The notes: generated by a model from the sequence alone, not told the origin. DNA of 64,000 nucleotides from an uncultured delta proteobacterium (GCA_963771175.1 CAVYSY010000033.1:128001-192000), one strand, 5' to 3'; shown: positions 5,223-53,255, counted from the stretch's first letter. Program-made: numbers and translations.

Positions 5223-5800
5223 GAGACGGCGACCTGCTGGTGGGAGGGAAGGAACTCGAAGGCGTTGAGCGGGGCCGGGCACACCTGGACGCAGACGCCA
5301 CAGCCGTTGCACCGCTCCTCCACCACGCGGGGGCGCCCCAGCTCGATGACGATGGCGTTCTCGACGGGGCAGCGCTCGGAGCAGGTGCTGCAGAACGAGC
5401 CCTGCCAGGCGAGGCAGAGCTGGGGACGCACGCGAACGGTCATCCCCGGGACGGGAGCACCCATCGGAGCGCCGGGATTCGCGGAGGACGGACCCCCAGC
5501 GGGAGGCGCGAGCGGAGCCATTCCGATCCGGCTGACGCCGTCCTGGGGGACGACGAGCCCCTCTCGCAGGGAGAAGACCGGGATGCTGTTTCCAGTGGCC
5601 TCGCCCGCCTGCGAACGGGAGGAATAGAACGCCTCGAGGGAGAAGCCACCGCCCGCTGCGGGAGCAGGCGCGGGTGCGGGCTCGGACACAACGGGCGCGG
5701 GCGCGGGAGCACGAGTGGGCTCCGGCGAAGGCGCGGGCTCCTCCTTCTTGCGAAGGAACCCGAAGAGCGCCCGGCGGCTGATGGCGGCCCGCGAGCTCAC
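5219..5800 (-). CDS. NapF/NapG-like 2x[4Fe-4S] ferredoxin
   Basis: GTG start overlapping the napB stop; SRRALFGF N-terminus; CLAWQGSFCSTCSERCP and CNGCGVCVQVCP. Confidence 0.8.
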   Translation of the reverse strand: MSSRAAISRRALFGFLRKKEEPAPSPEPTRAPAPAPVVSEPAPAPAPAAGGGFSLEAFYSSRSQAGEATGNSIPVFSLREGLVVPQDGVSRIGMAPLAPPAGGPSSANPGAPMGAPVPGMTVRVRPQLCLAWQGSFCSTCSERCPVENAIVIELGRPRVVEERCNGCGVCVQVCPAPLNAFEFLPSHQQVAVS

Positions 5801-6594
5801 GGCTTCGCCTCCGTCGCCATGCCCGCCAGACCCGGCTCCCCTGCCCCACCGACGCGCTGGTCGAGCCGCGCCGAGGAACCATGGCACTGCTGGCAGTTCT
5901 GCCGCTCCGGGTGCGAGGTGCGCAGCCCGGGGAGCCCCTTGGGCCCGTGGCAGCTCGCGCAATCGGTCCGCATGTGCGTCGAGTGAGGCATGGTCGGCGG
6001 TGCGCCCGGCCACGCCCGCGCACCATTCCCGGCCGAGGCCAGCCCGACGAAGCCGTTGCCCGGCATGTCCTTGTACGGGGCCAGCGGGCGAGGCGAATCC
6101 CCCACCACATGGCACTGCGTGCAGCTCTGGTACGGCTCGTGGCTGATCTTCGGAGCCACCCGGTTGCCCAGCTTCATCCCCTCGCCGTGGCAGGCGAGAC
6201 AGCCGGGGACCTCGCGCTGGTCGATGTCGTGCGGAATGGTCGGCGGCGCCCCGTCATACGCGCGGTGGGTCTTCCGCTGGGCCACGGCCTGCGCGCGCTG
6301 CTCGGAGGTGGCCACCGGCAGGGGCTTCACCGGCAACTCCTCCTCCGACAGCGAGGCAATGGCCCCCTCGTACATCCGCGCGTTGTCTCCACGCCGCGCC
6401 TCGCGCAGCTCGCCGTAGCTCAGAGCACGCTCCGCCCGTTGCGCATGCGGATCCGAAGCCACCGGTCGCTCGGGCATCTCCGGCGCACGGACCCCCGCGA
6501 AGTACCCGGTGGCCGCGAGCGCCACCGCCACGGCGGCGCCCACGTGGAGCCAGCGAGCCGGGAGGCCACTCCCCTGTTCGCCCTCGGGGTTCAT
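5797..6594 (-). CDS. napB: Nitrate reductase cytochrome c subunit, tetraheme (duplicated NapB-like domain)
   Basis: N-terminal hydrophobic helix; [22 protein letters not shown] and [22 protein letters not shown]; translationally coupled to napA. Confidence 0.85.
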
Positions 6595-29571: not shown

Positions 29572-31357
29572 ATGCCACTGACACCATTCGAGACCCCGTA
29601 TCTGTTCTTCACTGGCAAGGGAGGGGTGGGCAAGACATCGCTCGCATGCGCGACAGCCATCCATCTGGCGGATGCGGGCAGACGCGTGCTGCTCGTCAGC
29701 ACGGACCCGGCCTCCAACCTGGATGAGATGCTGGGCGTTGAGCTGTCGCGCCAGCCGAGGGCCATTCTCGGGTGTCCCGGGCCTGATGGCGCTCAACATC
29801 GACCCCGAGGCCGCCGCCGAGGCCTACCGGGAGCGTGTCATCGCCCCCTACCGCGGGCAGGTTCCCGAGAAGGAGGTGGAGAAGATTCGCGAGGAGCTGT
29901 CCGGCGCCTGCACCACCGAGATCGCCGCGTTCGACGAATTCGCGGGGCTCCTCGAAGAGACGTGGCGCCAACAATTCGACCACGTGGTGTTCGACACGGC
30001 CCCGACAGGACACACCCTGCGGTTGCTCAGCCTGCCCCGGGCCTGGACCCATTTCCTCGACAACAACACCCGTGGCGCCTCCTGCCTCGGACCCCACTCG
30101 GGGCTCACGATGCAGCGGGATCGCTTCGCCGCGGCCCTCGCCGCCCTCTCCGATCCCCACCTCACGACAGTCGTGCTCTGCACGCGGCCGGAGCGGGCGG
30201 CACTCCAGGAGGCGGAACGAACCTCCAGCGAGTTACGCGCCCTGGGGCTGGCCCACCAGCGACTGATCATCAACGGTGTCTTCCGGGCGACGAACCCGTC
30301 CGATCCCGTCGCCCTGGCCATCGAGGACCGGGAGAGGCAGGCACTCGCGCGGATGCCGCCAGCGCTCCATTCGCTCCCCACTGAAGAGGTGCCGCTGCGG
30401 GCCTTCAACATGCTCGGCATCGAACGCCTCCGGGCCTTGCTCGACTCCACGCAGCCGCCTCTCGGCGCCGGGCTCCCGGAGCTACCGCCCCTCCCCACGC
30501 GCTCGCTCTCCGGGCTCATCGACGAGCTCGCCGCGCCCGGCCATGGGCTCATCCTCGTCATGGGCAAGGGCGGCGTCGGAAAGACCACGCTCGCCTGCGC
30601 CATCGCCGCGGAGCTCGCCACCCGAGGCCACCACGTCCACCTGAGCACCACGGATCCTGCGGCCCATGTCGCCTCGACCCTCGCGGGCACCCTTCCGAAC
30701 CTCGAGGTGAGCCGGATCGATCCACGCGCCGAGACCCAGGCCTATATCGAGAAGACCCTGCGCCGCCGTGAAGCGGAGCTGGATGAGGAGGGCCGCGCGC
30801 TCCTGCTGGAGGACCTGGCCTCCCCCTGCACCGAGGAGGTCGCTGTCTTCCACGCATTCTCCCACCTCGTCTCCGAGGCACGCTCCTCGTTCGTGGTGCT
30901 CGATACGGCCCCGACGGGCCACACACTCCTCCTGCTCGACGCCACCGGTGCCTACCACCGGCAGATGACGCGCACCCTGCGGCCAGAACATGGGAGGCTG
31001 ATCACACCGCTCATGCGCCTGCAAGACCCGGCCTACACCCGCCTCCTCCTGGTCGCGCTCCCCGAGACGACTCCCGTCTCGGAGGCCGCGCACCTGCAAG
31101 AGGATCTCCGCCGCGCGGGCATCGAACCCTGGGCATGGCTCATCAACAACAGCCTGCTCGCCACGGGCAGCGAGGATCCCCTCCTGCGCGAGCGGATGAG
31201 GGCCGAGGTCGAGCAGGTGGTCCGGGTGGCGCGCGACCAGGCCCGGCGCGTCGTGCTCGTCCCGTGGATGGCCGAGGAGCCCACGGGGTTGGAGCGGCTC
31301 CACGCACTCGTGGACCACGGAGCCCCGGGCAAGCCGCAGCCCCTTCAGAGCCCGTGA
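29572..31357 (+). CDS. arsA: Arsenical pump-driving ATPase (indel near 29770)
   Basis: Two halves, each with GKGGVGKT and DTAPTGH; STDPA; SGACTTE, ASCLGP and SPCTEE metalloid-binding cysteines. Confidence 0.93.
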
Positions 31358-31394
31358 AGCGGAGGGGCTCGTGACCGGCTCCCGGGCCGGCGCG

Positions 31395-32417
31395 TCAGAA
31401 CGCGAGGACCACTCGCCCCTCGAGCTCGCCGGACTTCATCCGCGCGAAGATGTCATTGATGGACTCCAGCGGCGCCTGGGTGAAGGTGGTTCGGACCTTG
31501 CCCTCCGCCCCGAACTGGAGCGCCTCGGCGAGATCGGCGCGCGAGCCCACGATGGAGCCCCGGATCGTCAACCGCTTGAGCACCACGTCGAAGATGTGCG
31601 CGGTGAAGTCGCCCGGAGGCAGACCGACCAGCACCACCGTGCCCCGCCGACGTACCATGCCAACGGCCTGGGAGAAGGCCTGTGGAGAGACGGCCGTGAC
31701 GAGCACCGCGTGAGCACCGCCGAGCTCGTTCGCCACCCGGGCCACGGGGTCCTCCTGCCGCGCGTTGATGGTGAGCTCGGCGCCCAGGCGACGGGCCAGG
31801 GCCAGCTTGCCGTCGGCGACATCCACCGCGGCCACGTGCAGTCCCATGGCCCGGGCGTACTGCACCGCCATGTGGCCCAGCCCGCCGATGCCGGAGATGA
31901 CGACCCACTGGCCCGGCCGCGCCTCCGTCTCCTTGAGCCCCTTGTAGACGGTGACTCCCGCGCAGAGCAGGGGCGCCCCCTCGGCGAAGCCCACTCCCTT
32001 CGGCAGGTGGCCCACGTACTGGGCATCGGCCAGGATGTATTCGGCATAGCCCCCGTTGACGGAGTAGCCGGTGTTCTTCTGCTCCGGGCACACCGTCTCC
32101 CAGCCGGTGACGCAATACTCGCAGTGCCCGCATGCCGTGTAGAGCCAGGGCACGCCCACCCGGTCCCCCTCGCGCACCGCCCGCACGCCAGGCCCCACCG
32201 AGGCCACCGTCCCCACCCCCTCGTGCCCCGGAATGAAGGGGAGGGAAGGCTTGGCCGGCCAGTCGCCCTGTGCCGCGTGCAGGTCCGTATGGCAGACGCC
32301 GCAGGCGGCCACCTTGACCAGCGCCTGCCCCGGACCGGGCGTCGGAATGGGAACCTCCTCGATGGATAGGGGCTGGCCGAAGGCGTGGACGACCGCGGCC
32401 TTCATGGTGTCGGGCAT
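31395..32417 (-). CDS. adhP: Zn-dependent alcohol dehydrogenase (propanol-preferring)
   Basis: [40 protein letters not shown]. Confidence 0.93.
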
Positions 32418-32523
32418 GGCGTACCTCCCTCACCACATGAATGGGGCCGGTACCCGCCCTCGTGAACCTTCAGCGAGCAGCCATGAAAGCGTGAGGCGGC
32501 CCGCCCCGACGGCGACGGCCCGC

Positions 32524-32943
32524 TCAACCTGGGGAGGGAGACGCCCGCAGCCAGCCCTCGCGGGCCAGGAACGCCGACACGCGCGAGCGCACCTCGTCGC
32601 GAATCTCGCGCACCCGCTCGACCGGCTTGCCCTTGGGGTCCTCCAGCGGCCAGTCGTCGCGCTTCAGGCCGGGCACGTGCGGACAGGCCTCGCCGCAGCC
32701 CATGGTGATGAGCCACTGCGCGCCCTGGGCCAGCTCGTCCGTGAGGCGCTGCGGCTTCGCGCCCGACAGGTCGATGCCCACCTCGGCCATGGCGGCCTGC
32801 ACCTCCGGGTGCACACGCTCGCCGGGCTGCGTGCCGGCGGATACGCCGCGCGCCTTGTCCGGAGCGGCCAGCGCGTTGAAGAAGGCCGCCGCCATCTGCG
32901 AGCGGCCGGCGTTGTGGACACAGGCGAAGATGACCGTCTTCAT
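32524..32943 (-). CDS. arsC: Arsenate reductase (LMW-PTP fold)
   Basis: CVHNAGRSQMA P-loop, GCGEACP, DWPLEDP; coupled to acr3. Confidence 0.92.
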   Translation of the reverse strand: MKTVIFACVHNAGRSQMAAAFFNALAAPDKARGVSAGTQPGERVHPEVQAAMAEVGIDLSGAKPQRLTDELAQGAQWLITMGCGEACPHVPGLKRDDWPLEDPKGKPVERVREIRDEVRSRVSAFLAREGWLRASPSPG

Positions 32944-34074
32944 ACACTCTCCTGGGTGGAGGCGGGTTTCCGCTCACCGAAGCGGCGGGGCAGGACGACG
33001 GACTCCGACTGAGGGAAGAGCCGGCGCCGCAGCCACAGCGACAGGTAGACGAGCGCGATGAGCGCGGGCACCTCGATGAGCGGCCCCACCACGCCCGCCA
33101 GCGCCTCGCCCGAGGCCATGCCGAACACCCCCACCGCCACCGCGATGGCCAGCTCGAAGTTGTTGCCCGCCGCGGTGAAGGACAGCGAGGCCGTCTCCTC
33201 GTAGCTGAAGCCCAGCTTGCGCGAGAGGAAGAAGGCCGAGGCGAACATGATGATGAAGTAGAGCATCAGCGGGAGGGAGATGCGCACCACGTCCAGCGGC
33301 AGGCGGGTGATCTTCTCCCCCTGCATCGCGAACATCAGCACGATGGTGTAGAGCAGCCCGAGCAGCGCGGTGGGCCCCAGGCGCGGCAGGAACTCGTCTC
33401 GTACCACTCCTCGCCCTTGCGCCGGGTGAGTCCGAGCCGGGTGAGCGCCCCCGCGACCAGCGGCACGCCGAGGAAGATGAGCACGCTCTTGGCGATGCTC
33501 CACATGGACACGTCGAAGGCGGTCCCCTCGGCGCCGAGCCAGCCGGGGACGACGGTGAGGAAGAACCAGCCGAGCACCGAGTAGAAGAGGATCTGGAAGA
33601 CGGAGTTGAGCGCCACCAGCACGCGCGGCCATCTCGTTGCTGCCGCAGGCGAGCATGTTCCAGATCAGCACCATGGCGATGCAGCGCGCCAGGCCGATGA
33701 GGATGAGGCCCGTGCGGTAGTGCGGCAGATCCGGCAGCAGCAGCCACGCCAGCGCGAACATCAGCACCGGCCCGACCACCCAGTTGAGGAAGAGCGAGAC
33801 GCCGAAGAGCTTGCCGCGCGCGCGCAGCCGGCCCAGCTCGCCGTAGCGCACCTTCGCCAGCACCGGGTACATCATCCACAGCAGGCCGATGCGCGATGGG
33901 CAGCGACACGCGTGTCCAGCTTCACCGTGTCCAGCCGCGCGCCGAGGTCCGGGAAGGCCCGCCCCAGGCCGATGCCCGAGCGCCATGGCGGCGAAGATCC
34001 AGACCGGCAGGAAGCCGGTCGATGAACGAGAGTTTCCTGACGACGCTGTCGGAGGATGCAGCCGCGGTGGTCAT
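32940..34074 (-). CDS. acr3: Acr3-family arsenite efflux transporter (several indels)
   Basis: [51 protein letters not shown]. Confidence 0.92.
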
Positions 34075-34117
34075 GGTGTACGGGAACTCCAAAGGGGAAG
34101 GTCCGGCGAGGCGCACC

Positions 34118-34483
34118 TCACCGGCATGAATCGGGGCCTCGCGCCGCCAGGAGGCGCTCCACGTCCTGCTTCAGCACCTCGCGCCGGCCGAAGGCGGAGA
34201 CCAGCGTCTTGAGCTGCTGCTTGCTGAGCTCGTCCAGTTGCGGAGCCAGCCGGTAGTAGACCCAGCTCCCCTCCCGGCGAGACTCGACGATGCCGGCCGA
34301 GCGCAGCACGCCGAGCTGGCGCGACGCGTTGGGCTGCGAGAGCCCCAGCGCCGACTCGAAGTGGCAGACGCACAGCTCCCCATGGGAGAGCAGCGCGACG
34401 ATGCGCAGGCGCGTCTCGTCCCCCAGTGCCTTGAAGAAGCGGGAGGCCTGGCGGACGTCCAGGGTGGCAACGGCGGTGGACAT
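34118..34483 (-). CDS. arsR: ArsR/SmtB transcriptional repressor
   Basis: FKALGDETRLRI, ELCVC As(III) box, RREGSWVYY. Confidence 0.92.
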   Translation of the reverse strand: MSTAVATLDVRQASRFFKALGDETRLRIVALLSHGELCVCHFESALGLSQPNASRQLGVLRSAGIVESRREGSWVYYRLAPQLDELSKQQLKTLVSAFGRREVLKQDVERLLAARGPDSCR

Positions 34484-34486
34484 GAC

Positions 34487-34508
34487 GACATAACAATATT
34501 CGAATGTC
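34487..34508 (-). promoter_or_regulatory. Putative ArsR operator
   Basis: AT-rich inverted repeat GACAT-N12-ATGTC ending 3 nt before the arsR ATG. Confidence 0.6.
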
Positions 34509-34530
34509 CTTCTGCCGCAATCCCCCCCGG

Positions 34531-34546
34531 GTCACATCTGTGTGAC
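34531..34546. other. Perfect inverted repeat GTCACA-TCTG-TGTGAC (operator or terminator stem)
   Basis: Lies between the di-heme gene stop and the arsR promoter. Confidence 0.4.
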
Positions 34547-34596
34547 GGGACTGGCTCCCTACCCACCAGGCAGAGAGAGGCCCCGGAGCAGCCGGC

Positions 34597-36231
34597 TCAC
34601 TCCCAGTCGAGCAGCAGCCGGCCGTCCGTGAAATAGCGGCCCGTGGCCTCCAGCTCGGTGGAGCCGTTCTCCACCTGGGGGTGGACGTTCTTCGGAGGGG
34701 CCAGCAGCGTGTCGCGGCCCCTGGCGAAGGACTGCTCACGCACCAGCGCGAGGTAGGCCTTGTTCAGCGCCAGGGCCCGCTCGCGCGAGGGCGCGACGAG
34801 GAAGGACAGGTCCTTGTCCCCACCCTTCGCGGCCCGCCGCACCGTGGCCTCGTCCAGGACGCCATTGGGGAAGAAGCGCGTGAGGAGTTCCTCGTTGGCT
34901 CGGAACTCGTCACCACCTCGCACGCGCTCGAAGTACGTCAGCACCTCCGGCTTGGAGTGCCCGTTCTGCGGCACGTCGGGAATGCCCCGCACGTCCTGGT
35001 GCCGCCAGCCCTCCTTGCCCGGCACCTTGCGCGGAAAGGCGAACGTCTGATCCATCGTGACGCCGATGTTGGAGTGGCACCCCATGCAGAAGAGGTGCTC
35101 CTCGTACGTCTGCTTGCGCAGGCGCCCCCGGTCATCCTCGATGAAGCCCTCGAGCTGCCAGCCGAACTCGTTGAGCAGCCCCACCTCGGCGTTCCCGGCG
35201 AACACCGGCAGCTTGCCCCGCTGCTTGTCCTCGAACTCATTCTCGTAGGCGGCCATCGTGCGCCAGGCGTCCGGCTGTTCCACCTTGCGCGAGTAGCGCA
35301 GCTCCTTCATCCGCGCGGACAGGAGCGAGGGCGCGTCCGGGTCCACGTAGCGCACCGAGTGGAGGAACTCGGTACCGCCGGGGTACACGTACGTCACCCG
35401 CTTCACCGAGGCCGCGCCTCCCACGTACTGGCCCGGGAAGCCGCGAATCTCCGTCACGCCCGCGCGCAGCTCCCCATCCCCGTCCAGGTCCACCCCCGCC
35501 ACCCGCTCGTCCAGCGGCTCCACCGTGCGGCGCAGCTTGGAGGCCTCCGTCTCGTAGGGGCGCACCGTCATGGCCGCTTCGAGCAGCGACAGGTTGATGC
35601 GGTACACCTCGCGCGACGGCTGGCCGCTGGCATCGCGGCGGAAGGACTCCGGCAGGCGGATGAAGACGTCGTCCGTGCTGCCGTTGGTGGGCCAGAAGGT
35701 GCCGAGGAAGGGCTTGTAGCGCACCGCGCGCCAGCCGCTGCCGTCACGCGCGAAGCCGTCCTCGTCGAAGCCCTGGGAGAAATCCAGGTCCGGCTTGTAG
35801 CCGAGGTAGCCCTCACGCCCCTCCAGGGCCTCGCGCAGGGGCGTGTAGTTGTCCTCCCGGACCCAGGCGAGGATCTCCTCGTCGGAGAGCCCCGCCAGGG
35901 TCGCCGAGCGATCGGCGAACAGGTTGGTCCAGTGGTTCTTCAGCCCGAAGTCCGAGAAGGCGTACTCGGACTGCAGGGCGGCGTCGTTCGCCGTGTTGAG
36001 ACCGACGCCCTGGGTGTGACACGTCCAGCAGGGATTCGAGACACCCGCCGTCTTCGTGTAGCACATGGAGGGGATGGGAGCCTCCCGGTTCTCCACCCGC
36101 TCTCCCGCGGCCCGGGCCACGGCGAGCGGATCATACGAAGGCCGCCGGAGAACGGCGAGGGCGGCGATCACTGCTCCCAACCCGAGGAGCACCAGCGCTC
36201 CTCGGGAGACAGGCTTCACGACAGGCGACAT
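34597..36231 (-). CDS. Uncharacterised membrane-anchored putative di-heme c protein
   Basis: N-terminal TM; CWTCH and CMGCH; DLDGDGEL DxDxDG loop; starts 34 nt after the phoX stop. Confidence 0.8.
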   Translation of the reverse strand: MSPVVKPVSRGALVLLGLGAVIAALAVLRRPSYDPLAVARAAGERVENREAPIPSMCYTKTAGVSNPCWTCHTQGVGLNTANDAALQSEYAFSDFGLKNHWTNLFADRSATLAGLSDEEILAWVREDNYTPLREALEGREGYLGYKPDLDFSQGFDEDGFARDGSGWRAVRYKPFLGTFWPTNGSTDDVFIRLPESFRRDASGQPSREVYRINLSLLEAAMTVRPYETEASKLRRTVEPLDERVAGVDLDGDGELRAGVTEIRGFPGQYVGGAASVKRVTYVYPGGTEFLHSVRYVDPDAPSLLSARMKELRYSRKVEQPDAWRTMAAYENEFEDKQRGKLPVFAGNAEVGLLNEFGWQLEGFIEDDRGRLRKQTYEEHLFCMGCHSNIGVTMDQTFAFPRKVPGKEGWRHQDVRGIPDVPQNGHSKPEVLTYFERVRGGDEFRANEELLTRFFPNGVLDEATVRRAAKGGDKDLSFLVAPSRERALALNKAYLALVREQSFARGRDTLLAPPKNVHPQVENGSTELEATGRYFTDGRLLLDWE

Positions 36232-36265
36232 TGCTTCGAACCTCGGACAGCGGACTTCGGTTGGA

Positions 36266-38752
36266 TTACTTCGTGTACGGCCAGGCGCTGAACACGGCCT
36301 CGCCCGGGTGCTGGACGTTGAAGAACAGCGTCCGCATGTCCGGGGTGAACGCGGGGCCGGTGGCCTCGGCGTCGGAGGGCGTGGCCACCACGCGGAAGGC
36401 CTTGCCGTAGGTCTTTCCGACGTGGGCCGGGTTCAGGTCCAGGTAGTAGATGGAGTCCGAGGCGCCGTTGGCGTCGAAGTTGCCGTCGGTGCCGAACCAC
36501 ACGCCGCCCTGGCGGTCGATGGCGATGTTGTCCGGCTTGGACGCGTCGTAGAGCGCGTCATACCCGGCATCGCCCTTCTTCTTGCCCTTCCACACCCGGA
36601 AGTAGGTGAAGGCCGTCGAGGCGCCAGGAGAGGACGGATCCGCCTCGCGCACCGCGAAGATGCCACCGGACTTCTCGGTGGAGCGGCCCGACTTCTCCTC
36701 GGGGGAGGCGCTGTCGCGGGTACGCGTCACCCACGTGCCATCGCCAGCAACGGACGGCGCGGCGGTGATGAGGGTGCCGTCCTGACGCAGGGCCGTGGTG
36801 GTGCCGTGCTCGGTGAAGGCGATGTAGAGCAGCGGAGTGCCGCTCGGGTCCTTCGGGTTCCACTCCAGGTCCTCGGGCCGGTTGAGCTCCATCACGCCCA
36901 GCTTGTTGGAGGCGGTGAAGAGCGCGCGGCGGACCTCGTCGTCGTTGGGGAAGCCGCCCAGGCCGTTGTAGCTGACGTCCTTCAACGCCTGGCCCACGGT
37001 GTAGTCGGGATAGGTGTAGTCGGTGGTGCCGTCCGACATCTTGACCGTCTTGCCGGCGTTGGGCGCCTTGTCCGTCTCGTTGTTCACGGACAGCTCGATC
37101 CACTTGCCCTGGCCCGGCACCTCGGCGGTGGGGGCGACGGAGGCGCCGCCCTTGAGGATCTCCATGCCGTTGAGGTTGTCGAGGTCCGCGAAGTGGGCGA
37201 CGTACAGCTTGCCGGTGTCGAGCAGCTGGCGGATCTGCTCGCGCGTCATGCCCGCGGTGTAGTTGCCGCTGGAGACGAACTTGTAGATGCGACCGCTGCG
37301 GCGGTCGTCACCGGAGTAGATGACGATGGGCTTGTTGGGCACCAGCTTGAAGTCCGCGCCGACGGCGAAGGTGGCGTTCTCCCAGCGCGCGCGGCCCATG
37401 CCGCCCAGCTTGCGGTGGCCGACGCCCGCGGTCGTCTTGCCGTAGTACTCCTGCGGGCCCACCGTCAGGTCCATCTCCACCAGGTAGCCGTGCATGTCAC
37501 GGTTGTGGCGGGCGTTGGTCGAGCCCGAGTCGGTGGTGGGATAGGGGCTGAAGTCACCCGTGGTGCTCGGCGTCACCACCGGGGTGATGGTGGAGCCGGC
37601 CAGGAAGGTGTTCGGGTTCTCGCCCGTGGTGGTGAAGACGAGGTTGTTGCTGCTGCTCCAAGCGGTCTCCAGGTCACCGTAGGAGCCCTGGACGTTCTCC
37701 TCGGCGGTGATGAGGGTGCCCCACGGCGTCTGGCCACCGGAGCAGTCCGATTGGATGCCGGCCACCACGCCATCGGGCAGCGGATTGCCCGAGTCGTCAT
37801 GGTCCACGCCGGAGAGGGTCTGGCCCACCACCTTCACCAGCGTGTTGCTGGTGGCATCGAAGCGCCGGGCGTTCGCGGTGAGGTCCACGTTCCACTCGCC
37901 CGTGCGCGCATCCTGCACGACGCGGAAGTACGAGCCGCCCACCTGCCGCTTCCAGTGGTTGCCGTAGTCCGCGAGGTCCTGCTGCGACCAGGCGGCGGCG
38001 GTGACGTCGTTGTTCAGCGCGCCGAAGCTCTTGAGGAACCGGGCGAGCGTCAGGTGCTGGCCCATGGGCGCCGCGGTGGCCTTGGGACGCGAGTTGGAGA
38101 TGTACTCGTGGTTGACCCACACCCAGCCAGCGGTGCCGCTGCCGCTGTACACGGGCGAGAGGTTGCCGCCGGCGTTCCAGTCGTCGCCGAAGAAGGCGAT
38201 GTAGTCGCCGTTGGCGCCAAAGCGCGGCGCCTTCACCGGATCGTAGTTGTTGTTGTCCGCGTCCCCATCGGCATAGCTGAGGGGATCCATCCACTTGGTG
38301 ACGACGGTGGAGTGGACGCCCTGCACCGTGCGCACGTTGTCCGTGGCGGCGGAGGGCAGCGGGAAGGAGACCCCCGCGGGGAGCGTGCCAGCGGCCACCT
38401 GGTCCACGCGCGCCTTCACGTAGTCCGCGAGCGTCTCCGCGCCCGTCTCCGCGTCACCCCGGTAGACGATGGCCACCATGGACGACAGCGGCGTGCCCTG
38501 CTCCACGCCCTGGGCGCGCTGCACGTTGCCGAGGCCCGGAATCACCGGAGCCGCCGGCCCCTGGGGACCGGTGGGACCCGTGGGCCCGCTCGTGCCCCCG
38601 ACGCCGTCGGCGCCATCCTTACCGTTGGTACCGTTGACGCCATCCTTGCCGTTGGCACCCGCGGGGCCCTGGGAGCCCTCACAGCCGACTCCAGCCAGGG
38701 CGCTACCGAGGAGGAGCGCGCTCGTGGCGAGGCCCAGAAGACGAGAAGACAT
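36266..38752 (-). CDS. phoX: PhoX-family (DUF839) alkaline phosphatase, lipoprotein with collagen-like linker
   Basis: WVNHEY, DCSGGQTPWGTLITAEEN, GRARWEN, NRPED, PDNI, TDG, AEATGPAFTPD..LFFNVQHPG; lipobox-like AGVGC. Confidence 0.88.
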   Translation of the reverse strand: MSSRLLGLATSALLLGSALAGVGCEGSQGPAGANGKDGVNGTNGKDGADGVGGTSGPTGPTGPQGPAAPVIPGLGNVQRAQGVEQGTPLSSMVAIVYRGDAETGAETLADYVKARVDQVAAGTLPAGVSFPLPSAATDNVRTVQGVHSTVVTKWMDPLSYADGDADNNNYDPVKAPRFGANGDYIAFFGDDWNAGGNLSPVYSGSGTAGWVWVNHEYISNSRPKATAAPMGQHLTLARFLKSFGALNNDVTAAAWSQQDLADYGNHWKRQVGGSYFRVVQDARTGEWNVDLTANARRFDATSNTLVKVVGQTLSGVDHDDSGNPLPDGVVAGIQSDCSGGQTPWGTLITAEENVQGSYGDLETAWSSSNNLVFTTTGENPNTFLAGSTITPVVTPSTTGDFSPYPTTDSGSTNARHNRDMHGYLVEMDLTVGPQEYYGKTTAGVGHRKLGGMGRARWENATFAVGADFKLVPNKPIVIYSGDDRRSGRIYKFVSSGNYTAGMTREQIRQLLDTGKLYVAHFADLDNLNGMEILKGGASVAPTAEVPGQGKWIELSVNNETDKAPNAGKTVKMSDGTTDYTYPDYTVGQALKDVSYNGLGGFPNDDEVRRALFTASNKLGVMELNRPEDLEWNPKDPSGTPLLYIAFTEHGTTTALRQDGTLITAAPSVAGDGTWVTRTRDSASPEEKSGRSTEKSGGIFAVREADPSSPGASTAFTYFRVWKGKKKGDAGYDALYDASKPDNIAIDRQGGVWFGTDGNFDANGASDSIYYLDLNPAHVGKTYGKAFRVVATPSDAEATGPAFTPDMRTLFFNVQHPGEAVFSAWPYTK
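38560..38680 (-). repeat. Collagen-like Gly-X-Y repeats within phoX
   Basis: GSQGPAGANGKDGVNGTNGKDGADGVGGTSGPTGPTGPQGP. Confidence 0.85.
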
Positions 38753-38880
38753 TGAAGATGACCTTCCTGACAGATTGGGGGAAACGCCCGCGGCTCAGGC
38801 ACGGGCTCGCACATCCTGCGAGCCGCGTGTGGCGTTCCCTTGAGGAAGTCGTCACATCTTCATTACGAATGAGGAACGGG

Positions 38881-39419
<539 letters not shown>

Positions 39420-39420
<1 letters not shown>

Positions 39421-39815
39421 CAGCCCATCTGCAGCGGCTTGTTGAGCAGCTTCTCCGCGAGCTGCGTGCCGAGGCTGTCCGCCATCAGCCGCTCCACCAC
39501 GCCCTCGAACTCGGCGCGCTGGTGCTCGTCGTTGTAGATGAAGCGGATGCCCATGCCGGGCTCCTCCACATCCCCCTTGGACCAGACCACCTCGCCGAGC
39601 AGCTCGAAGGGCGCCTCGCGCTGGGGCACGGTGAGCTTGAAGAGGAAGCGCGTCCCGATGGGCAGCGGCTTCTTCGTCTTGATGAAGGTGCCTCCCTTGG
39701 AGATGTTCTTCGTGTAGTCCGCGAAGAACGAGTTGAGCTTCTTGTAGTCGACCTTCAGCTCGATGGGCGCGCGAGCGTACTGGCGGAATTCAGCGCCTGT
39801 CTTCTGTTCGGCCAT
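39420..39815 (-). CDS. Myxobacterial stand-alone PilZ domain protein (TIGR02266-like)
   Basis: RQYAR (RxxxR), NISKGG, GEVVWS, GMGIRF. Confidence 0.9.
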
Positions 39816-42768: not shown

Positions 42769-43740
42769 TCACACTCCGGCGAGCGCGCGCAGGCCCCCGG
42801 CCCCCATCTGAGCCAGGGCTCGAGCCCGGGCCAGGTAGGTGCGGAAGTCCTTCGGTGCCAATTTGTCAGGCGGCAGCCCCGAGAGGTGGAAGTCGCGGAT
42901 GCGGCTGGCGGTGTAACGCACCGCCCCGAAGAGCGCGTGGCCGAAGAGGTCCTCCCGCTCCACCGGGACCAGCGAGCGCTCCACCTGGTAGCCGCGCAGC
43001 AGCGCCCGGCACAGCTCCGGCCGGTACGCCCCGTTGTCGAAGCACCACGCGTTGAGGGTGATGGCCACGTCCAGCCCGTACGCGTCCCGGCACGCCATCT
43101 CGAAGTCGAAGAGCGCGCTCACCCGGTCCCCCAGCCACTTCACGTTGTCCATGAAGAGGTCCGCGTGGATGACGCCGCGCGGAGCCAGCCCCCCGCGCTC
43201 CTGCTCGGCCCGCTCCAGGTAGCCCTGCAGCTCGAGGGCGATGGCGGACAGCTCCGCGTCCGGGTGCTGGCGCAGCCCCTCCAGCCAGCCGCGCACCACC
43301 TCGGGGCCGTAGGGGTTGGTGCGCGAGCCCCCGAAGGACAGGGTGACGCGGTGTAGCTTGCCCAGCTCCATCCCCAGGCCCTCGAGGTGCTCGGGGGTGA
43401 GCTGCGCGCGGGTGAGCTCCTCGCCCGGCAGCCACGCGAAGACGCTCACCCGGCCCCCCTCCATCTCCAGGAAGGGCTGGCCCTCGCGCGTGGAGACGAG
43501 CCGCGGCGCGGGGACGTGGGACTCGTTGAGCAGCGCCAGCAGCTCCGCCTCGAAGCGCAAATCCGCCGCCGAGCGCACCGTGGTGTGCCGCACGAAGTAG
43601 CGCCCGGAGGCCGTCACCAGCCGGTAGTTGGAGTTGATGGAGCCCTGGGGGATGCCCGCGAACTCGCGCGCGGGTCCCAATCCGTAGGCCTCCGAGAGCC
43701 GGGTGAAGGCCGAAGTGTCGAGTGTGGTGTAGAGCGCCAT
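42769..43740 (-). CDS. thrB: Homoserine kinase type II (APH-like fold)
   Basis: MALYTTL, GIPQGSINSNY, GVIHADLFMDNV, LFDFEMAC, KDFRTY. Confidence 0.88.
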   Translation of the reverse strand: MALYTTLDTSAFTRLSEAYGLGPAREFAGIPQGSINSNYRLVTASGRYFVRHTTVRSAADLRFEAELLALLNESHVPAPRLVSTREGQPFLEMEGGRVSVFAWLPGEELTRAQLTPEHLEGLGMELGKLHRVTLSFGGSRTNPYGPEVVRGWLEGLRQHPDAELSAIALELQGYLERAEQERGGLAPRGVIHADLFMDNVKWLGDRVSALFDFEMACRDAYGLDVAITLNAWCFDNGAYRPELCRALLRGYQVERSLVPVEREDLFGHALFGAVRYTASRIRDFHLSGLPPDKLAPKDFRTYLARARALAQMGAGGLRALAGV

Positions 43741-43889
43741 GGATGATGTCCTCCGGGGAACGACTCGCCGCCCCGCGCCGGCCGCCCCGCGTTGACGCCC
43801 CGAGGCACCAGACCTAACTACGAACGGCCCCATCGTCTCATTCATAAACGTCCGAAACCATTCAAATTTCAGCTTCGGAGGCGCCCTCC

Positions 43890-45485
43890 ATGGCCGCGAA
43901 GGATGGAAGCAACGGCGGGCAGCGGGACTGGAGGAGGAGGGAGAGCCTGACGAGCGCGCTCGTGCAGGTAGGGGTGGTGGCGGTGCTGCTGGCGGGCGCG
44001 GTGACGTACGTGGTGCACCGGGGCTCGGTGCGGCAGCAGACGGATGCGCGGATGAAGGCAGCGCGGACGGCGGCCCAGCGCGACAACCCGGCGGACCTGC
44101 GCAAGGCGCTGACGGAGCTGGAGGCCCTCTTCCAGCTCGACGCGGACGTGCGCGACGCCCAGGCGCTGGCGGCGGACGTGAACACGCGACTGTGGCTGGA
44201 GTACCGCCAGCCCGAGTCCGAGGCCCGGGCCCGCGAGCACCTCGCGCGCGCCGAGGCGTTGGACTCGCGCTCGGGCGAGCGCTACGGGGCCAAGGCCCTG
44301 CTGCTGCTCGCCGAGGGTAAGTCCGCCGAGGCGGAGAAGTACCTGGAGGAGCTGAAGACACAGGGGGCCAAGAGCCCCAGGCTGTCGCTCGCGGAGGCGA
44401 AGCTGCTGCTGGAGCGAGGACGGCTCTCGGATGCACGACTGGCCTTCTCGCGGGCGAGCGAGGCCGCCTGGAGGGAGCCGCGCTACCCCGTGGCCCATGG
44501 TGAGGCCCTGCTCGACGAGGGCATGTACGCCCAGGCCGCCGAGGCGATGAAGAAGGCACTGGCGGCGAACCCGGATCATCTGCGGGCGAGGCTCTCGCTG
44601 ACGCTCGCCCGGCTGTACCAGGGCGAGGGCCGGGAGGAGGCCGCCAAGGTCGTCTCCGAGATGCTGTCACGCGAGGCCGAGCTCGGCCCGGCGCTGAAGG
44701 CCCGCCTACGAGTGGTCCAGGCCGCCCTGGCGCTGGCGGAGGGACGCGCGGACGAGGCCCAGAAAGCCGCCGAGGAGTCTCTCGCCGCCGTTCCGGACGA
44801 GCACCATGCCCTCTTCGTCCGAGCGCGGGCACTGGCCCTGAAGAAGGACCCGGGCGCGCGCGCGGCCTTTCAGGAGGCGGTGGCGAAGCATCGGACGGCC
44901 CCCCTCCTCTATCTGGATGGCGCCCGGGCGCTGCAGCAGGCGGGAGATGGCGAGGGCGCCCTGGCGCTGCTGGACGCCTACGAGGCCGTCTTTCGCGACG
45001 TGCGGGTGGCCGCTCCCGAGGGAAAGACGGTGGGCGCGCTGGAGCGGGACGAGCGGTACTGGCTGGCGCGGGGCAACGTGATGGAGGCGCTGGGCCGCGC
45101 GGACGACGCGATGGGCGCCTATGACAAGGCCATGGCGGTGAAGGGCGTGGGCCTGGCGCGCGCGCAGTACGCGAAGGCGGTGCTGCTGATGGCGCGCAAG
45201 GACTACGACGGCGCCCAACCGCTGCTGACCGAGGTGGCGCCGGAGAACGGCATGGGCGCCATGCCCGAGGCCTACGAGGCCCTCGGCGACCTGCTCTTCG
45301 CTCGGGGCGAGTACGCCAACGGGTGCCAGCGCTACTTCCTCGGGCTGACCCGCGCGCGGCTCCAGGGGGCGCCGCTCGAGACGCTGAAGGCGAAGGCCTC
45401 GGACGTGGAGAAGCGCCTGACGGCCGCGGGACAGCCCTCCATGGCCAAGGCGTGGAAGACCGAGGCGGAGGCGATGCTGCGGTAG
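43890..45485 (+). CDS. Membrane-anchored tetratricopeptide repeat protein
   Basis: Single N-terminal TM followed by Ala/Leu-rich TPR-like repeats. Confidence 0.8.
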   Translation: MAAKDGSNGGQRDWRRRESLTSALVQVGVVAVLLAGAVTYVVHRGSVRQQTDARMKAARTAAQRDNPADLRKALTELEALFQLDADVRDAQALAADVNTRLWLEYRQPESEARAREHLARAEALDSRSGERYGAKALLLLAEGKSAEAEKYLEELKTQGAKSPRLSLAEAKLLLERGRLSDARLAFSRASEAAWREPRYPVAHGEALLDEGMYAQAAEAMKKALAANPDHLRARLSLTLARLYQGEGREEAAKVVSEMLSREAELGPALKARLRVVQAALALAEGRADEAQKAAEESLAAVPDEHHALFVRARALALKKDPGARAAFQEAVAKHRTAPLLYLDGARALQQAGDGEGALALLDAYEAVFRDVRVAAPEGKTVGALERDERYWLARGNVMEALGRADDAMGAYDKAMAVKGVGLARAQYAKAVLLMARKDYDGAQPLLTEVAPENGMGAMPEAYEALGDLLFARGEYANGCQRYFLGLTRARLQGAPLETLKAKASDVEKRLTAAGQPSMAKAWKTEAEAMLR

Positions 45486-45526
45486 GGAATTCCGCGGGCG
45501 CGAAGTCCAGACGGGGGGAAGACGAT

Positions 45527-46942
45527 ATGGCTTTGGACCGGGCAGGGGTTCCCTGGCTCACACCAGTTCTGCTTGCCGCGGGCGTGGCATGGCTGCTGCT
45601 TGATGTGCTCACCCCCCGCGCCATCTTCATCCCGCCCGACGGGTGGATGTACTGGCAGGCCTCGGTGAACCTGCTCGAGGGCCACGGCTACCAGGACTTC
45701 CGAGGCGTCCCGCTCATCTGGTGGCCGCCGCTGTACGCCGCGTTCCTCGCCGGGTGGCAAGCGCTCTGGGGCGTCTCCGGAACAGCGCTCGTGCATGCGA
45801 ACAAAGCGCTGGCCGCCGTGGCCGCGGCGGGCTGGGTCTCCCTGTACGTGACCACGCGTCAGGCGGAGGGGGAGCGCATCAGCCGGAAGGAATGGCCCGA
45901 GCTCGCCCTGGTCCTGCTCTTCGCGGCCCTGGCGGTGGCCAGCACCTGTAACGGCGTGCTGGCCAACAACCTCGTCCACGCCCTGGTGCCGTTCGCCCTC
46001 GCGAGCGCTGTCTCGCTCACGACCGCCGCCTCTTCGGCGAGCCTCCTGCGGCGGGCCGCGGCCCTGACCTTGCTCGGAGCCGCGCTGATGCTCACGCACA
46101 ACTCGAGTCTGACGCTCCTGCCGCCGCTGAGCCTGTCGGCCCTGCTGGCCCGCGGAGGGACCCGCACCACCCGCTGGGCCGCGGCGGCGCTCGTTTCGGT
46201 CGTGCCCCTGGGGATGTGGCTGGCCGTACGTCGGGCCCTCGGACTCTTCTCGAGCCACACCCTCGGCTGGGGAGCCTCGCCCCTGACGCCGCTGGAGCAT
46301 CTCGGGACTCTCACGCGGAGCGTGGGGGAGCTCCTCTTCACCACCTGGAGGGGACAGCACCTCCCCGTCCTGGTGGGTGTGCTCGGCTGTCTGGGGCTCC
46401 TCGTGGCGCGGGCCCGCCGGGAGCGAGGCCATTTCCCCGCCGAGGCGGTCCCCCTCTCCGTCACCCTGTTCGCCGCGGGGGCGCTCTTCCTCCTGTTCAA
46501 CCTGGTGCACCTGGAGAACGGGCTGGGACGCCGCTTCACCCTGTTCATTCCCCTGACGCTCGTGCCCTCACTGCTGGCGCTTCGACGTGCGGCGAAGGGC
46601 CCTCGATGGCTCGGGGCGCTCTCGCTGGCGCTGGCGGTGCTGGCCACCGTCTCGGCGGGGTACCGGTATGTCGAATCGCTGCGGGCCTCGCGGCGCGTCA
46701 CGCCGTTCGAGCCGGCCCACTGGCAGGAGCAGGCGAGTGCCCTCGCCTACCGGGAGCTGACCCTCACCCCGGGCTACCTGGAAGGGCCCGTCACGGAGAA
46801 GGGACAGCAGTGGCTCGTGCCGCCACCGCGCGTGGCCTGGTACGAGCGGGACTTCCAGCGCGCCCTGAGCAGGAACCAGGGCACCGCGGAACCGGGGCCA
46901 CCCCTCTCGGCCACGCAGCGGGACGAGGCCCCGCTGCCCTGA
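45527..46942 (+). CDS. Polytopic membrane protein, GT-C (ArnT/PMT-like) glycosyltransferase candidate
   Basis: First loop PPDGWMYWQASVNLLEGHGY..WPPLY followed by about 10 TM segments. Confidence 0.55.
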   Translation: MALDRAGVPWLTPVLLAAGVAWLLLDVLTPRAIFIPPDGWMYWQASVNLLEGHGYQDFRGVPLIWWPPLYAAFLAGWQALWGVSGTALVHANKALAAVAAAGWVSLYVTTRQAEGERISRKEWPELALVLLFAALAVASTCNGVLANNLVHALVPFALASAVSLTTAASSASLLRRAAALTLLGAALMLTHNSSLTLLPPLSLSALLARGGTRTTRWAAAALVSVVPLGMWLAVRRALGLFSSHTLGWGASPLTPLEHLGTLTRSVGELLFTTWRGQHLPVLVGVLGCLGLLVARARRERGHFPAEAVPLSVTLFAAGALFLLFNLVHLENGLGRRFTLFIPLTLVPSLLALRRAAKGPRWLGALSLALAVLATVSAGYRYVESLRASRRVTPFEPAHWQEQASALAYRELTLTPGYLEGPVTEKGQQWLVPPPRVAWYERDFQRALSRNQGTAEPGPPLSATQRDEAPLP

Positions 46943-51923: not shown

Positions 51924-53057
51924 ATGTCGTCCCGAGCCCTGTCGTCGTTCAGTGCCGCGGTGCTGTCGCTGTTGCTGCTCACCGCCTGCGGAGAGGAGAA
52001 GCCCTATGCGTGGCAACTGCCACCGGGCTTCCCGGAGCCCTTCGTCCCCTCGGACAACCCCATGTCCGAGGAGAAGGCGGCCCTGGGCCGCTACCTCTTC
52101 TACGACAAGCGCCTGTCCGGCAACGGCACCATGTCCTGCGGGAGCTGCCACGAGCAGAAGCGGGCCTTCAGCGACGGCAAGGCAACGCCCACCGGCTCCA
52201 CGGGGCACCACGTCGCGCGCAACTCGCCCGGCCTCGCCAACGTGGCCTACCTCGCCACGTACACCTGGGCCAACCCCTTGCTCGACACCCTGGAGAAGCA
52301 GGCGCTGGTGCCTCTCTTCGCGGAGTCGCCCGTGGAGCTGGGCGCGGCGGCGAACCTGGAGGAGGTGTTGCAACGGCTGCGCGAGGACTCGCGCTACCCG
52401 GACCTGTTCCGCGCGGCATTCCCGGACGAGAAGCAACCCATCACCCGGGACAACGTCGTGAAGGCGATCGCGTCCTTCCAACGCACGCTGCTGTCGGGCA
52501 ACTCGCCCTACGACCGCTACTTCCAGGGAGACATCCATGCCCTGTCCGACTCCGCCAAGCGGGGCATGGAGCTATTCTTCGGCGAGCGCGCCGAGTGCTA
52601 CCACTGCCACAGCGGGCCGCACCTGACGAACTCCTTCCGGACGAAGGACGCGAAGCAGCTCGAGATCGTCTTCCAGAACACGGGCCTCTACAACGCGGAC
52701 GGCCAGGGGGCCTACCCGGGGGACAACACCGGCCTCTTCGAGTTCACCGGCGACCCGAGGGACATGGGACGCTTCCGCGTCCCCAGCCTGCGCAACGTGG
52801 CCCTGACGGCGCCCTACATGCACGACGGCAGCGTGGCCACCCTGGAGGCGGTCCTGGACCACTACACGGCCGGCGGGCGCGACGTGACGAGCGGGCCCTA
52901 CATGGGGGACGGCCGGGCGAGCCCGCTGAAGGATCCGCTGGTGCGCCCCTTCGAGCTGACGGACCAGGAGCGCGCCGACCTCATCGCCTTCCTCGAGAGC
53001 TTCACCGACATGGACTTCGTGAACGACCCGCGCTTCAGCGACCCCTTCGCCGAGTAG
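51924..53057 (+). CDS. mbnH: MbnH-family di-heme enzyme (bCcP/MauG superfamily)
   Basis: DNPMSEEKAALGRYLFYDKRLS, CGSCH, CYHCH, FRVPSLRNVALTAPYMHDGS; directly downstream of mbnP. Confidence 0.88.
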   Translation: MSSRALSSFSAAVLSLLLLTACGEEKPYAWQLPPGFPEPFVPSDNPMSEEKAALGRYLFYDKRLSGNGTMSCGSCHEQKRAFSDGKATPTGSTGHHVARNSPGLANVAYLATYTWANPLLDTLEKQALVPLFAESPVELGAAANLEEVLQRLREDSRYPDLFRAAFPDEKQPITRDNVVKAIASFQRTLLSGNSPYDRYFQGDIHALSDSAKRGMELFFGERAECYHCHSGPHLTNSFRTKDAKQLEIVFQNTGLYNADGQGAYPGDNTGLFEFTGDPRDMGRFRVPSLRNVALTAPYMHDGSVATLEAVLDHYTAGGRDVTSGPYMGDGRASPLKDPLVRPFELTDQERADLIAFLESFTDMDFVNDPRFSDPFAE

Positions 53058-53060
53058 CCT

Positions 53061-53255
53061 CTACAGCAGCGGGGACGGCAAGGGGCGTCGTTCAAAGGGT
53101 AATCGCAAGCCTTCACCCTTCTCCACGCCCTTCACGAAGGCCGCCTGGAGTACCTCCTCGGCCGCCTCCTGGCTGCCCACGCGGGGCACGAGGAAGGCGA
53201 GGAACTGGCGGTGGTGAGCCACCAACGTCCGCAGGACTTCGGGGTGCATGCTCAT
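53061..53255 (-). pseudogene. Truncated ECF sigma factor (CorE-like N-terminus)
   Basis: MSMHPEVLRTLVAHHRQFLAFLVPRVGSQEAAEEVLQAAFVKGVEKGEGLR (start of sigma region 2), then unrelated sequence and a stop; ATGA overlap with the czcA stop. Confidence 0.7.

Follow-up and report, generated by a model that had tools for sequence, protein, structure and literature searches.

In a 64,000-nucleotide stretch of DNA from an uncultured delta proteobacterium (GCA_963771175.1, CAVYSY010000033.1:128001-192000; hereafter the window), two neighbouring open reading frames (ORFs) on the minus strand encode a phosphatase of the PhoX type and a protein of the Pfam family PF27085 (Aq_1262) with two c-type haem motifs. 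The present study is concerned with this pair, which is a real and strongly conserved functional module, and with what the haem protein may do for the phosphatase. The genes are laid out as follows:

36266..38752, minus strand: phoX-type gene, 828 aa (P0002), encoding a Sec/lipoprotein-type PhoX of a clade without the twin-arginine motif
36232..36265, minus strand: intergenic spacer of 34 nt, with GAGG 9 nt 5' of the ATG
34597..36231, minus strand: gene of a di-haem c protein of PF27085 (Aq_1262), 544 aa (P0001), identified from the translation and the precomputed Pfam label PF27085.1

Both ORFs stand where an earlier reading, made by a model from the sequence alone (the sequence-only reading), had placed them as a two-gene arrangement with a 34-nt gap. 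With a third-position GC content of 0.93 (PhoX) and 0.92 (haem protein) in a window of about 70% GC, both are typical of real genes. No terminator-like site was seen in the 34-nt gap and no sigma-70-like promoter in 34000-39600, and the nearest relatives of P0001 and P0002 come from Archangium and other Myxococcota, at 77-81% identity.

The two proteins

P0002 matches the PF05787 profile over residues 131-817 with 200.6 bits (curated cut-off 24; E 7.7e-59), and its parts, from the N-terminus, are:

38684..38752, minus strand: PhoX signal peptide (residues 1-23), with a lipobox-like end LAGVGC and no twin arginine
38555..38686, minus strand: collagen-like G-x-x linker (residues 23-66), Pfam Collagen E 4.2e-05, under the cut-off
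36302..38362, minus strand: PhoX beta-propeller catalytic domain (residues 131-817), Pfam envelope, aligned to PhoX of the PDB

The N-terminus, MSSRLLGLATSALLLGSALAGVGC, has no RR motif; the signal for export by twin-arginine translocation (Tat) is a typical, not a defining, feature of PhoX. The P. fluorescens PhoX structures 4amf and 3zwu align with P0002 at E 1e-19, and the DCSGGQTPWGT..AEEN block read in its translation, which bears out the retained DCSGG..TPWGT..EEN motif of the sequence-only reading, pairs with NCANGKTPWGT..CEEN of 4amf. The residues C337, E351, E352, E458, D483, R625, E627, D741, D756 and E796 are invariant both in the clade to which P0002 belongs (64 of 64) and in PhoX of the twin-arginine type (11 of 11), and H815 is found in 10 of the latter 11; several positions near the motifs differ consistently between the two groups, e.g., W457, at which the twin-arginine type has His. 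The presumed metal ligands, including the iron-ligating Cys, are among these motif residues. P0002 therefore resembles the classical Tat-exported PhoX of P. fluorescens (3zwu/4amf) in its Pfam family and in all shared motif residues, but differs from it in a lipoprotein/Sec signal, the collagen-like linker, about 240 extra residues and membership of a separate, PF27085-linked clade. The metal and catalytic motifs of PhoX are thus kept, and an Fe3+/Ca2+ phosphomonoesterase activity is predicted.

The haem protein P0001 is built from the following elements:

36151..36201, minus strand: N-terminal hydrophobic segment (residues 11-27), helical in the model, a signal anchor or a cleavable signal
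36061..36063, minus strand: Cys57, in MCYTKT, invariant, with the near-invariant Tyr58 next to it
36016..36030, minus strand: invariant haem motif 1, CWTCH (residues 68-72), lying within the N-terminal domain, which is small and helical
35473..35490, minus strand: DxDxDG loop, a calcium-type motif (D248-L-D-G-D-G253), for which metal binding is predicted from sequence only
35074..35088, minus strand: haem motif 2, CMGCH (residues 382-386), invariant
35002..35814, minus strand: central beta-rich domain (residues 140-410), probably P460/c'-beta-like, bearing haem motif 2

In an alignment of 30 diverse PF27085 sequences, down to 31% identity, C57, C68, C71, H72, C382, C385 and H386 are invariant together with 27 further positions, and conservation reaches 90% or more at Y58, H291, D248 and L249; a 14-sequence alignment of distant members likewise shows both CxxCH motifs and the Cys upstream of them as invariant. 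Since seven Cys and His positions are invariant down to such identity, the haem motifs are not chance, and we infer that P0001 binds haem at both of them. Because the invariant Cys are odd in number (five), Cys57 is less likely to be half of a disulfide than to ligate haem, form a cross-link or remain a free thiol. No conserved Met or His occurs in residues 73-140 of the 30 sequences. The features that the sequence-only reading had listed for this protein, namely the two CxxCH motifs with an extra Cys, the DxDxDG loop and the lack of bCCP/MauG motifs, can all be found again: CCP_MauG (PF03150) gives no match for P0001 at E up to 0.1, whereas the same Pfam library scores 6.4e-50 for the window gene 51924-53057 (+). 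Its description as membrane-anchored stands in part. The hydrophobic helical residues 11-27 agree with it, but cleavage is possible at a signal-peptidase site (ALA|V), and many relatives of P0001 have a lipobox Cys at the N-terminus instead.

The precomputed label PF27085.1 is carried by P0001 and by all 120 relatives among the matches listed, which are at least 59% identical to P0001; clusters of the ESM Atlas, where the family is named Aq_1262, are 100% PF27085. A search of 5.8 billion proteins gave at least 3879 matches at E <=0.001 among 8000 candidates scored, and an exhaustive search of 1.84 billion representatives (clusters at 50% identity) gave 566 clusters at E <=0.001, 182 of them at E <=1e-30. 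Judged by their names, the sources include Myxococcota, Acidobacteriota, Chloroflexota, Planctomycetota, Bdellovibrionota and Pseudomonadota. Our local Pfam copy lacks the PF27085 model and hence gave no such match for P0001; the sole match there was Cytochrome_CBB3 at residues 67-120 (E 0.021; 15.6 bits, where the cut-off is 27). NCBIfam yielded no match, and a sequence search of the PDB nothing beyond a chance match (E 0.1). No publication on Aq_1262 or PF27085 came up in literature searches, which also covered PhoX or DUF839 together with cytochromes, cytochrome c peroxidase included, and the first functional context for the family is given here.

The AlphaFold2 model of full-length P0001 has a predicted local distance difference test score (pLDDT) of 91.3 and a predicted template modelling score (pTM) of 0.90. 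Foldseek against the PDB returned nothing at E <=0.001 with this model, the best rows being cytochrome P460 and cytochrome c'-beta (E 0.18-0.25). VIA-align, run exhaustively over 48,161 chains, found just eight chains at Z >=2, and the five at Z 3.9-5.1 (6hiu, 8brk, 7s5o, 2je3, 6amg) all belong to P460/c'-beta and cover model residues ~140-407. When residues 140-410 were folded alone from 28 sequences (alignment A3; pLDDT 82.7, pTM 0.84), the same five chains came out on top, with Z 6.5, 6.3, 6.3, 5.6 and 5.0 and the next fold at 4.3; the best superposition (Z 6.5, root-mean-square deviation 3.7) aligned 130 of 143 residues, and the best Foldseek row was again P460 (E 0.057, probability 0.69; none at E <=0.001). 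At the level of profiles, PF16694 did not match P0001, of 12 long relatives scanned, 4 had sub-threshold Cytochrome_P460 matches (E 1.4e-4 to 7.8e-4; cut-off 27 bits) over the haem-2 region, and one further sub-threshold match, in the long relative L086, lay at the haem-1 motif. An hhalign comparison of A3 with 23 P460-family domains from Pseudomonadota genomes gave a probability of 61% (E 7.9e-5, 42 columns) and superposed GW..F, CxxCH and D..F. Folds of the bCCP/MauG, FoxE-like or multihaem kind are absent from the structure-match lists, an absence that does not exclude a fold.

Each of these lines is weak to moderate (Z <8), and because they all agree the central domain is probably P460/c'-beta-like. 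With cytochrome P460 and c'-beta (PF16694; 6hiu, 2je3, 7s5o, 8brk) it would share a beta-sheet haem c domain with CxxCH near the C-terminal end and the pattern GW..F ... CxxCH ... D..F, common to P460 and PF27085. The known domains have about 140 residues, whereas that of P0001 has about 270, with large insertions, and sits inside a 544-aa two-haem protein; moreover, PF27085 has no evident link to nitrogen-oxide chemistry and no Pfam match above the cut-off. From a domain of this kind it would follow that haem 2 is probably open-coordinate, ligand-binding and catalytic.

Linkage, clade structure and fusions

A scan with one genome per species found 141 PF27085 relatives, of which the best 80 of 141, corresponding to 79 loci (designated L), were kept. 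With P0002 as tblastn query, PhoX was found in 63 of the 79 loci. The surroundings of PF27085 are distributed as follows, with L048 entered twice, since the end of a purple-acid-phosphatase (PAP)-like gene is visible in the little upstream DNA that it has:

PhoX directly upstream, same strand: 61 loci, with 99-557 nt between the PhoX stop and the PF27085 residue that is aligned first
PhoX 3.0 or 4.6 kb upstream: 2 loci (L074, L075)
Upstream DNA shorter than 1 kb: 6 loci (L017, L048, L060, L061, L066, L073)
Divergent PhoX upstream: 1 locus (L071), Pfam E 1.6e-12
PAP-like lipoprotein gene directly upstream: 3 loci (L048, L049, L050)
No phosphoesterase neighbour: 7 loci (L032, L063, L064, L068, L069, L072, L077)

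A second sample, of 301 Myxococcota genomes drawn evenly, contained PF27085 in 46 genomes (53 rows) and PF05787 in 88 (at least 150 rows). Among the matches listed, 50 of the 53 PF27085 rows had PF05787 on the same strand at a distance of 111-1098 nt upstream. Of the other three, one (genome G014) is a 1055-aa protein in which PF27085 is fused to a PD40 propeller, one (G161) is truncated and has an in-frame TAG, and one (G295) is a fragment at the end of a contig. Homologs are therefore mostly linked to phoX, both in the species loci and in the Myxococcota rows, when adjacency is scored as the sequence-only reading had proposed. At least 37 long Myxococcota PhoX matches do not adjoin PF27085. 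Among 401 Pseudomonadota genomes the family occurs in 8, with PhoX directly upstream in 4 and divergently oriented in 1. A metagenome scan with one PD40-fusion protein as query provided one usable locus, and a PD40-fused PF27085 member from a metagenome follows a PhoX gene at a 28-nt gap. In genomes G301 and G308 PF27085 is unlinked, and a PhoX of the type without the twin-arginine motif lies elsewhere in the genome; G305, the genome of L050, gave no PhoX match.

At least 8 phyla share the gene order. Clustering of ORFs over the 79 loci revealed no third conserved gene: the largest cluster other than PF27085 (79 loci), PhoX (63 loci) and an artefact of antisense ORFs was present in 17 of 79. 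Across 54 loci, pairwise identities of PhoX (median 52%) and PF27085 (median 59%) co-vary with r 0.89, a value reached by none of 999 permutations; since related genomes share history, this shows co-inheritance and nothing beyond it.

Two loci may record decay of the module, one in Myxococcus sp. Y35, where PhoX is in two alignment pieces (L054 3726-5851), the other being the truncated PF27085 copy with the in-frame TAG (G161:C1:6988229-6989329). At the Binatia-like loci L072-L074, a BamD/YfiO-like lipoprotein gene of 477-483 aa lies downstream of PF27085. As regards regulation, a search with the E. coli-type Pho box consensus, with 3 mismatches allowed, produced 0 matches at L071 and 1 chance-level match, distant from the genes, at L040; we know of no myxobacterial Pho box.

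The linked PhoX proteins also differ in export signal from those that stand alone. A lipobox-like motif is present in 32 of 58 full-length linked PhoX ORFs. Some RR-x-hydrophobic pair occurs in 8 of 58 among the initial 130 residues when the ORF is taken at maximal length, and none of these shows a consistent twin-arginine signal; G-x-x runs such as that of P0002 are frequent among them. By comparison, 14 of the 37 unlinked long PhoX were sampled, and a clear twin-arginine motif (e.g., SRRQFL, SRREMI) was found in at least 11 of these 14, none of which has a CxxCH neighbour of the PF27085 kind beside its gene. In a FastTree tree of 80 PhoX proteins with midpoint root (built without L054, which is split, L075, which is truncated, and L003, L008, L019 and L070, which are truncated at the 5' end), 57 of 58 adjacent PhoX fall into one clade of 64 rows with support 90, while all 11 of the twin-arginine type lie outside it in groups supported at >=99, and PhoX of the L071 type forms a long separate branch. 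The check that the sequence-only reading had proposed, whether linked PhoX form a non-Tat clade, is thereby borne out. Three PhoX of one Myxococcota family (f2) are nested in the linked clade, and their neighbours are unrelated genes.

A second, shorter PhoX was noted in genome G000 (G000:C57:66777-67928; L087 4568-5983), a 471-aa ORF with Pfam E 3.9e-64 and no haem neighbour, which groups with a twin-arginine-type PhoX in the tree.

Fusion proteins provide another kind of evidence. We surveyed 93 PF27085 relatives of 953-2720 aa, counting precomputed Pfam labels by eye and reading ten sequences. The combination PF05787+PF27085 was labelled in 4 of 93 (P0270, P0271, P0299 and P0350, the last also with PD40). 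P0271, P0299 and P0350 contain a complete short-type PhoX followed by PF27085, with Sec-type signals at the start of P0271 and P0350. PF04185, the family of phospholipase C and the acid phosphatase AcpA, is joined to PF27085 in 9 of 93; all six of these that were read begin with a lipoprotein signal and lack a twin arginine, and local Pfam gave PF04185 at E 9.3e-78 in P0218. A cd1-type propeller (PF02239) is fused in 5 of 93, with Cytochrom_D1 found locally in P0155 and P0129, and roughly 75 of 93 bear PD40/TolB-like propellers, their sources being by name mostly Desulfobacterota and Chromatiales. The hydrolase comes first and PF27085 second, which is the order of the separate genes. Because c-type cytochromes receive their haem in the periplasm after Sec export, these fusions must fold outside the cytoplasm.

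P0270 was rejected as a PhoX+PF27085 fusion; its PhoX part stops mid-domain, and it is likely two genes merged across a frameshift. The long relative L086 (4740-7907) is a PF27085-propeller fusion with a Kelch-repeat lipoprotein gene upstream.

The PAP-like genes of L048-L050 combine Metallophos with Pur_ac_phosph_N and have the motifs GDxG, GDxxY, GNHE and GHDH. The partners of PF27085 are accordingly phosphoesterases of three unrelated folds: the PhoX propeller, a metallophosphatase and PF04185. Canonical relatives of the partner families are Tat substrates, whereas the partners here are Sec-exported or lipoproteins, or are fused to a c-type cytochrome. On the strength of the linkage, the fusions and the clade structure, a direct functional partnership between PhoX and PF27085 is very likely. 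At a Myxococcales locus (L079 2551-3231) a PAP-like gene also stands upstream of a PhoX-PF27085 pair, making three phosphoesterase-context genes in a row.

What PF27085 may do for its partners

The cofactor of PhoX comprises two Fe3+, three Ca2+ and a mu3-oxo group, and both PhoX and PhoD leave the cytoplasm through Tat; insertion of iron in the cytoplasm is put forward there as a speculation, on the ground that iron in the periplasm cannot be relied upon (PMC4223295). Tat also carries PlcH, prototype of the PF04185 superfamily, across the membrane in its folded form (PMC3601568). This gives rise to the thought that PF27085 stands in for what the Tat route provides. One product of the pair would be a Sec-exported, lipid-anchored PhoX-type Fe/Ca phosphatase, and the other a periplasmic, membrane-tethered two-haem c-type protein, in which three elements may be joined: a small c-type haem domain at the N-terminus, bearing the invariant Cys-Tyr pair, a haem-2 domain resembling P460/c'-beta, and a calcium-type loop. 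PF27085 would pass electrons to or from the iron centre of its partner, and iron acquired in the periplasm would be brought to, or held in, the Fe(III) state that the Fe3+/Ca2+-oxo cofactor of PhoX needs. It would in this way replace the cytoplasmic metal loading thought to come with folding before Tat export in classical PhoX, PhoD and PlcH-type enzymes. PhoX and purple acid phosphatases, two of the three partner families, use Fe(III). We hold it quite possible, though somewhat short of an even chance, that PF27085 is such a redox partner, setting or keeping the iron state of Sec-exported phosphoesterases; the direction and the target of the electron transfer, as well as any effect on phosphatase activity, are inferred parts of this proposal.

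There are precedents. The statement of the sequence-only reading that no PhoX-cytochrome partnership had been described proved incorrect: according to Lidbury et al. (2022; PMC8812569), all Flavobacterium genomes carry a lipoprotein phoX in an operon with a MauG-like c-type cytochrome peroxidase, the partner (fjoh_2477) is induced by Pi depletion, PhoX alone showed no activity when expressed in P. putida, and the authors, citing the action of MauG on methylamine dehydrogenase, suspect that the haem protein is needed for PhoX function. The likeness is that of a lipoprotein PhoX co-encoded with a two-haem c-type protein; the Flavobacterium partner, however, is of a different family, bCCP/MauG (PF03150), whereas P0001 has no PF03150 match and a central domain that is probably P460/c'-beta-like. 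Turning to the haem enzymes themselves, MauG, acting on pre-methylamine dehydrogenase, and MbnH, acting on MbnP, are di-haem enzymes that mature a neighbouring periplasmic protein, and like them PF27085 is a periplasmic two-haem protein encoded beside its proposed target. It has no sequence homology to them, its partners are hydrolases of three folds and sometimes fused to it, and the target proposed here is a metal centre, in contrast to the Trp modification of the known systems. EfeB of EfeUOB, a periplasmic haem peroxidase proposed to oxidise Fe2+, offers a precedent for a periplasmic haem enzyme devoted to iron oxidation, but it is a Tat-exported b-haem protein of the DyP type without homology to PF27085, and it serves iron uptake rather than enzyme maturation.

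The implications would be considerable. In soils and oceans PhoX is among the main recyclers of organic phosphorus, and through its need for iron it ties the phosphorus and iron cycles to each other. If the Sec-exported PhoX clade depends on a two-haem partner, counts of phoX genes without that partner would not be predictive of activity, and heterologous expression without it would fail, as it already did for the Flavobacterium enzyme. Furthermore, a periplasmic route of metallo-cofactor assembly or maintenance that replaces Tat export would be new, and it may extend to purple-acid-phosphatase-like enzymes and to those of the phospholipase C/AcpA type.

Several observations weigh against a redox partner of this kind. 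The P460-like assignment is itself modest (Z <8, Foldseek E >0.001, hhalign probability 61%). Seven of the 79 loci have no phosphoesterase neighbour, and for two of them (L032 and L077) the genomes, which may be incomplete, gave no PhoX match. PF27085 was found in none of the 39 genomes of the Myxococcota family f2, even though a PhoX there matches P0002 from end to end at 51% identity, lipoprotein signal and collagen-like linker included; in that family the partner is dispensable or has been replaced. For PF04185 enzymes we know of no iron requirement. A factor needed a single time per molecule would not usually be fused 1:1 to its target for good, and such a fusion would better fit a permanent redox subunit. 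Finally, most of the long fusions are propellers in anaerobic Desulfobacterota, and oxidation driven by O2 or H2O2 therefore cannot be general. The absence from f2, the PF04185 enzymes without iron, the permanent fusions and the anaerobic hosts leave room for a permanent redox subunit acting on phosphorus compounds and for other explanations.

The first of these, which we regard as a minority possibility, takes PF27085 for a permanent electron-transfer or catalytic subunit of a redox-hydrolytic enzyme for unusual phosphorus compounds. Hydrolysis could be followed by oxidation of reduced phosphorus (e.g., phosphite), or a mixed-valent di-iron site could be kept reduced for oxidative chemistry, and the layout would recall the way in which cytochrome domains are placed in quinohaemoprotein dehydrogenases or in cd1 nitrite reductase. 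A subunit of this sort would be expected to occur in stable fusions, as PF27085 does with PhoX, PF04185 enzymes, PD40 propellers and propellers of the cd1 type (PF02239); the conservation of PF27085 across phyla, higher than that of PhoX (median 59% against 52%), and the many invariant Arg and Lys in the haem-2 domain would suit a small-molecule enzyme or agree with a permanent subunit, and that domain is P460-like, P460 enzymes being oxidisers of small molecules. Yet no reduced-phosphorus genes (ptx, htx, phn) were seen in the neighbourhoods, the PhoX motifs are those of an ordinary phosphomonoesterase, and three unrelated hydrolase folds would have to feed one redox step. That PF27085 is a new periplasmic haem enzyme of phosphorus metabolism, either catalysing a redox step on phosphorus compounds or maintaining a mixed-valent di-iron site, seems to us quite unlikely; were it true, the "PhoX" of the clade without the twin-arginine motif would be halves of a redox-hydrolytic machine and not simple phosphatases.

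It is improbable that the two genes are merely co-regulated, with PF27085 a general periplasmic peroxidase, an electron carrier or a sensor of nitric oxide (NO) or O2 in a phosphate-starvation operon. The seven loci without a phosphoesterase neighbour and the family in which the same PhoX type occurs without PF27085 are in keeping with it, as is the binding of NO by P460/c'-beta relatives; a gene order kept across at least 8 phyla, direct fusions to two phosphoesterase families, the lack of any third conserved gene and the co-divergence of the two proteins speak against it.

We consider it very improbable that PF27085 works as a MauG- or MbnH-like enzyme making a covalent modification, such as a cross-link or hydroxylation, of a partner residue rather than acting on its metal. 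The partners have three unrelated folds, so that one residue-specific change is unlikely, P0001 has no homology to PF03150, and the related PhoX of the family without PF27085 keeps all motifs. Nevertheless, two haems, one of them probably open-coordinate, together with a calcium-type loop may parallel the bCCP/MauG design, and MauG does act on methylamine dehydrogenase, the analogy that the Flavobacterium authors propose for their PhoX (PMC8812569).

Equally remote is the mobilisation of substrate, in which PF27085, as a haem protein exposed at the surface or in the periplasm, would reduce Fe(III) in insoluble complexes and free phosphate esters or phosphate for the neighbouring phosphatase: the association with phosphoester hydrolysis in general rather than with one fold, and the occurrence of the family in soil, sediment and marine lineages, anaerobes included, accord with it, but there is no sign of an extracellular location or of a source of electrons, known Fe(III) reductases, being multihaem and six-coordinate, do not resemble a protein of two haems with a P460-like pocket, and the restriction to PhoX without the twin-arginine motif would be left unexplained.

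Other genes in the window

Directly downstream of the haem gene lies an arsenic-resistance-like cluster (window 29672-34483). Arsenate is an analogue of phosphate, and the cluster is not conserved beside the pair at other loci. Its members are:

34118-34483, minus strand: ArsR-family regulator
32940-33986, minus strand: SBF/ACR3-like permease
32524-32943, minus strand: low-molecular-weight phosphatase/ArsC-like gene
29672-31357, plus strand: ArsA ATPase

Further away, a 953-aa ORF (42769-45630, minus strand) contains a phosphotransferase domain of the aminoglycoside/choline-kinase type (APH), confined to its C-terminal third; no Pfam family covers the remainder. Two consecutive ORFs of 242 and 322 aa (53061-54812, minus strand) match different parts of the AcrB/ACR_tran profile; they may represent a split or frameshifted pump gene of the resistance-nodulation-division (RND) type, or the ORF boundaries may be wrong. 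Additionally, the window encodes two other putative haem proteins: the gene at 51924-53057 (plus strand), named mbnH by the sequence-only reading, belongs to the di-haem cytochrome c peroxidase/MauG family (CCP_MauG, E 6.4e-50), and a 265-aa ORF at 5797-6594 (minus strand) contains four CxxCH motifs, with NapB/cytochrome c3-like Pfam matches.

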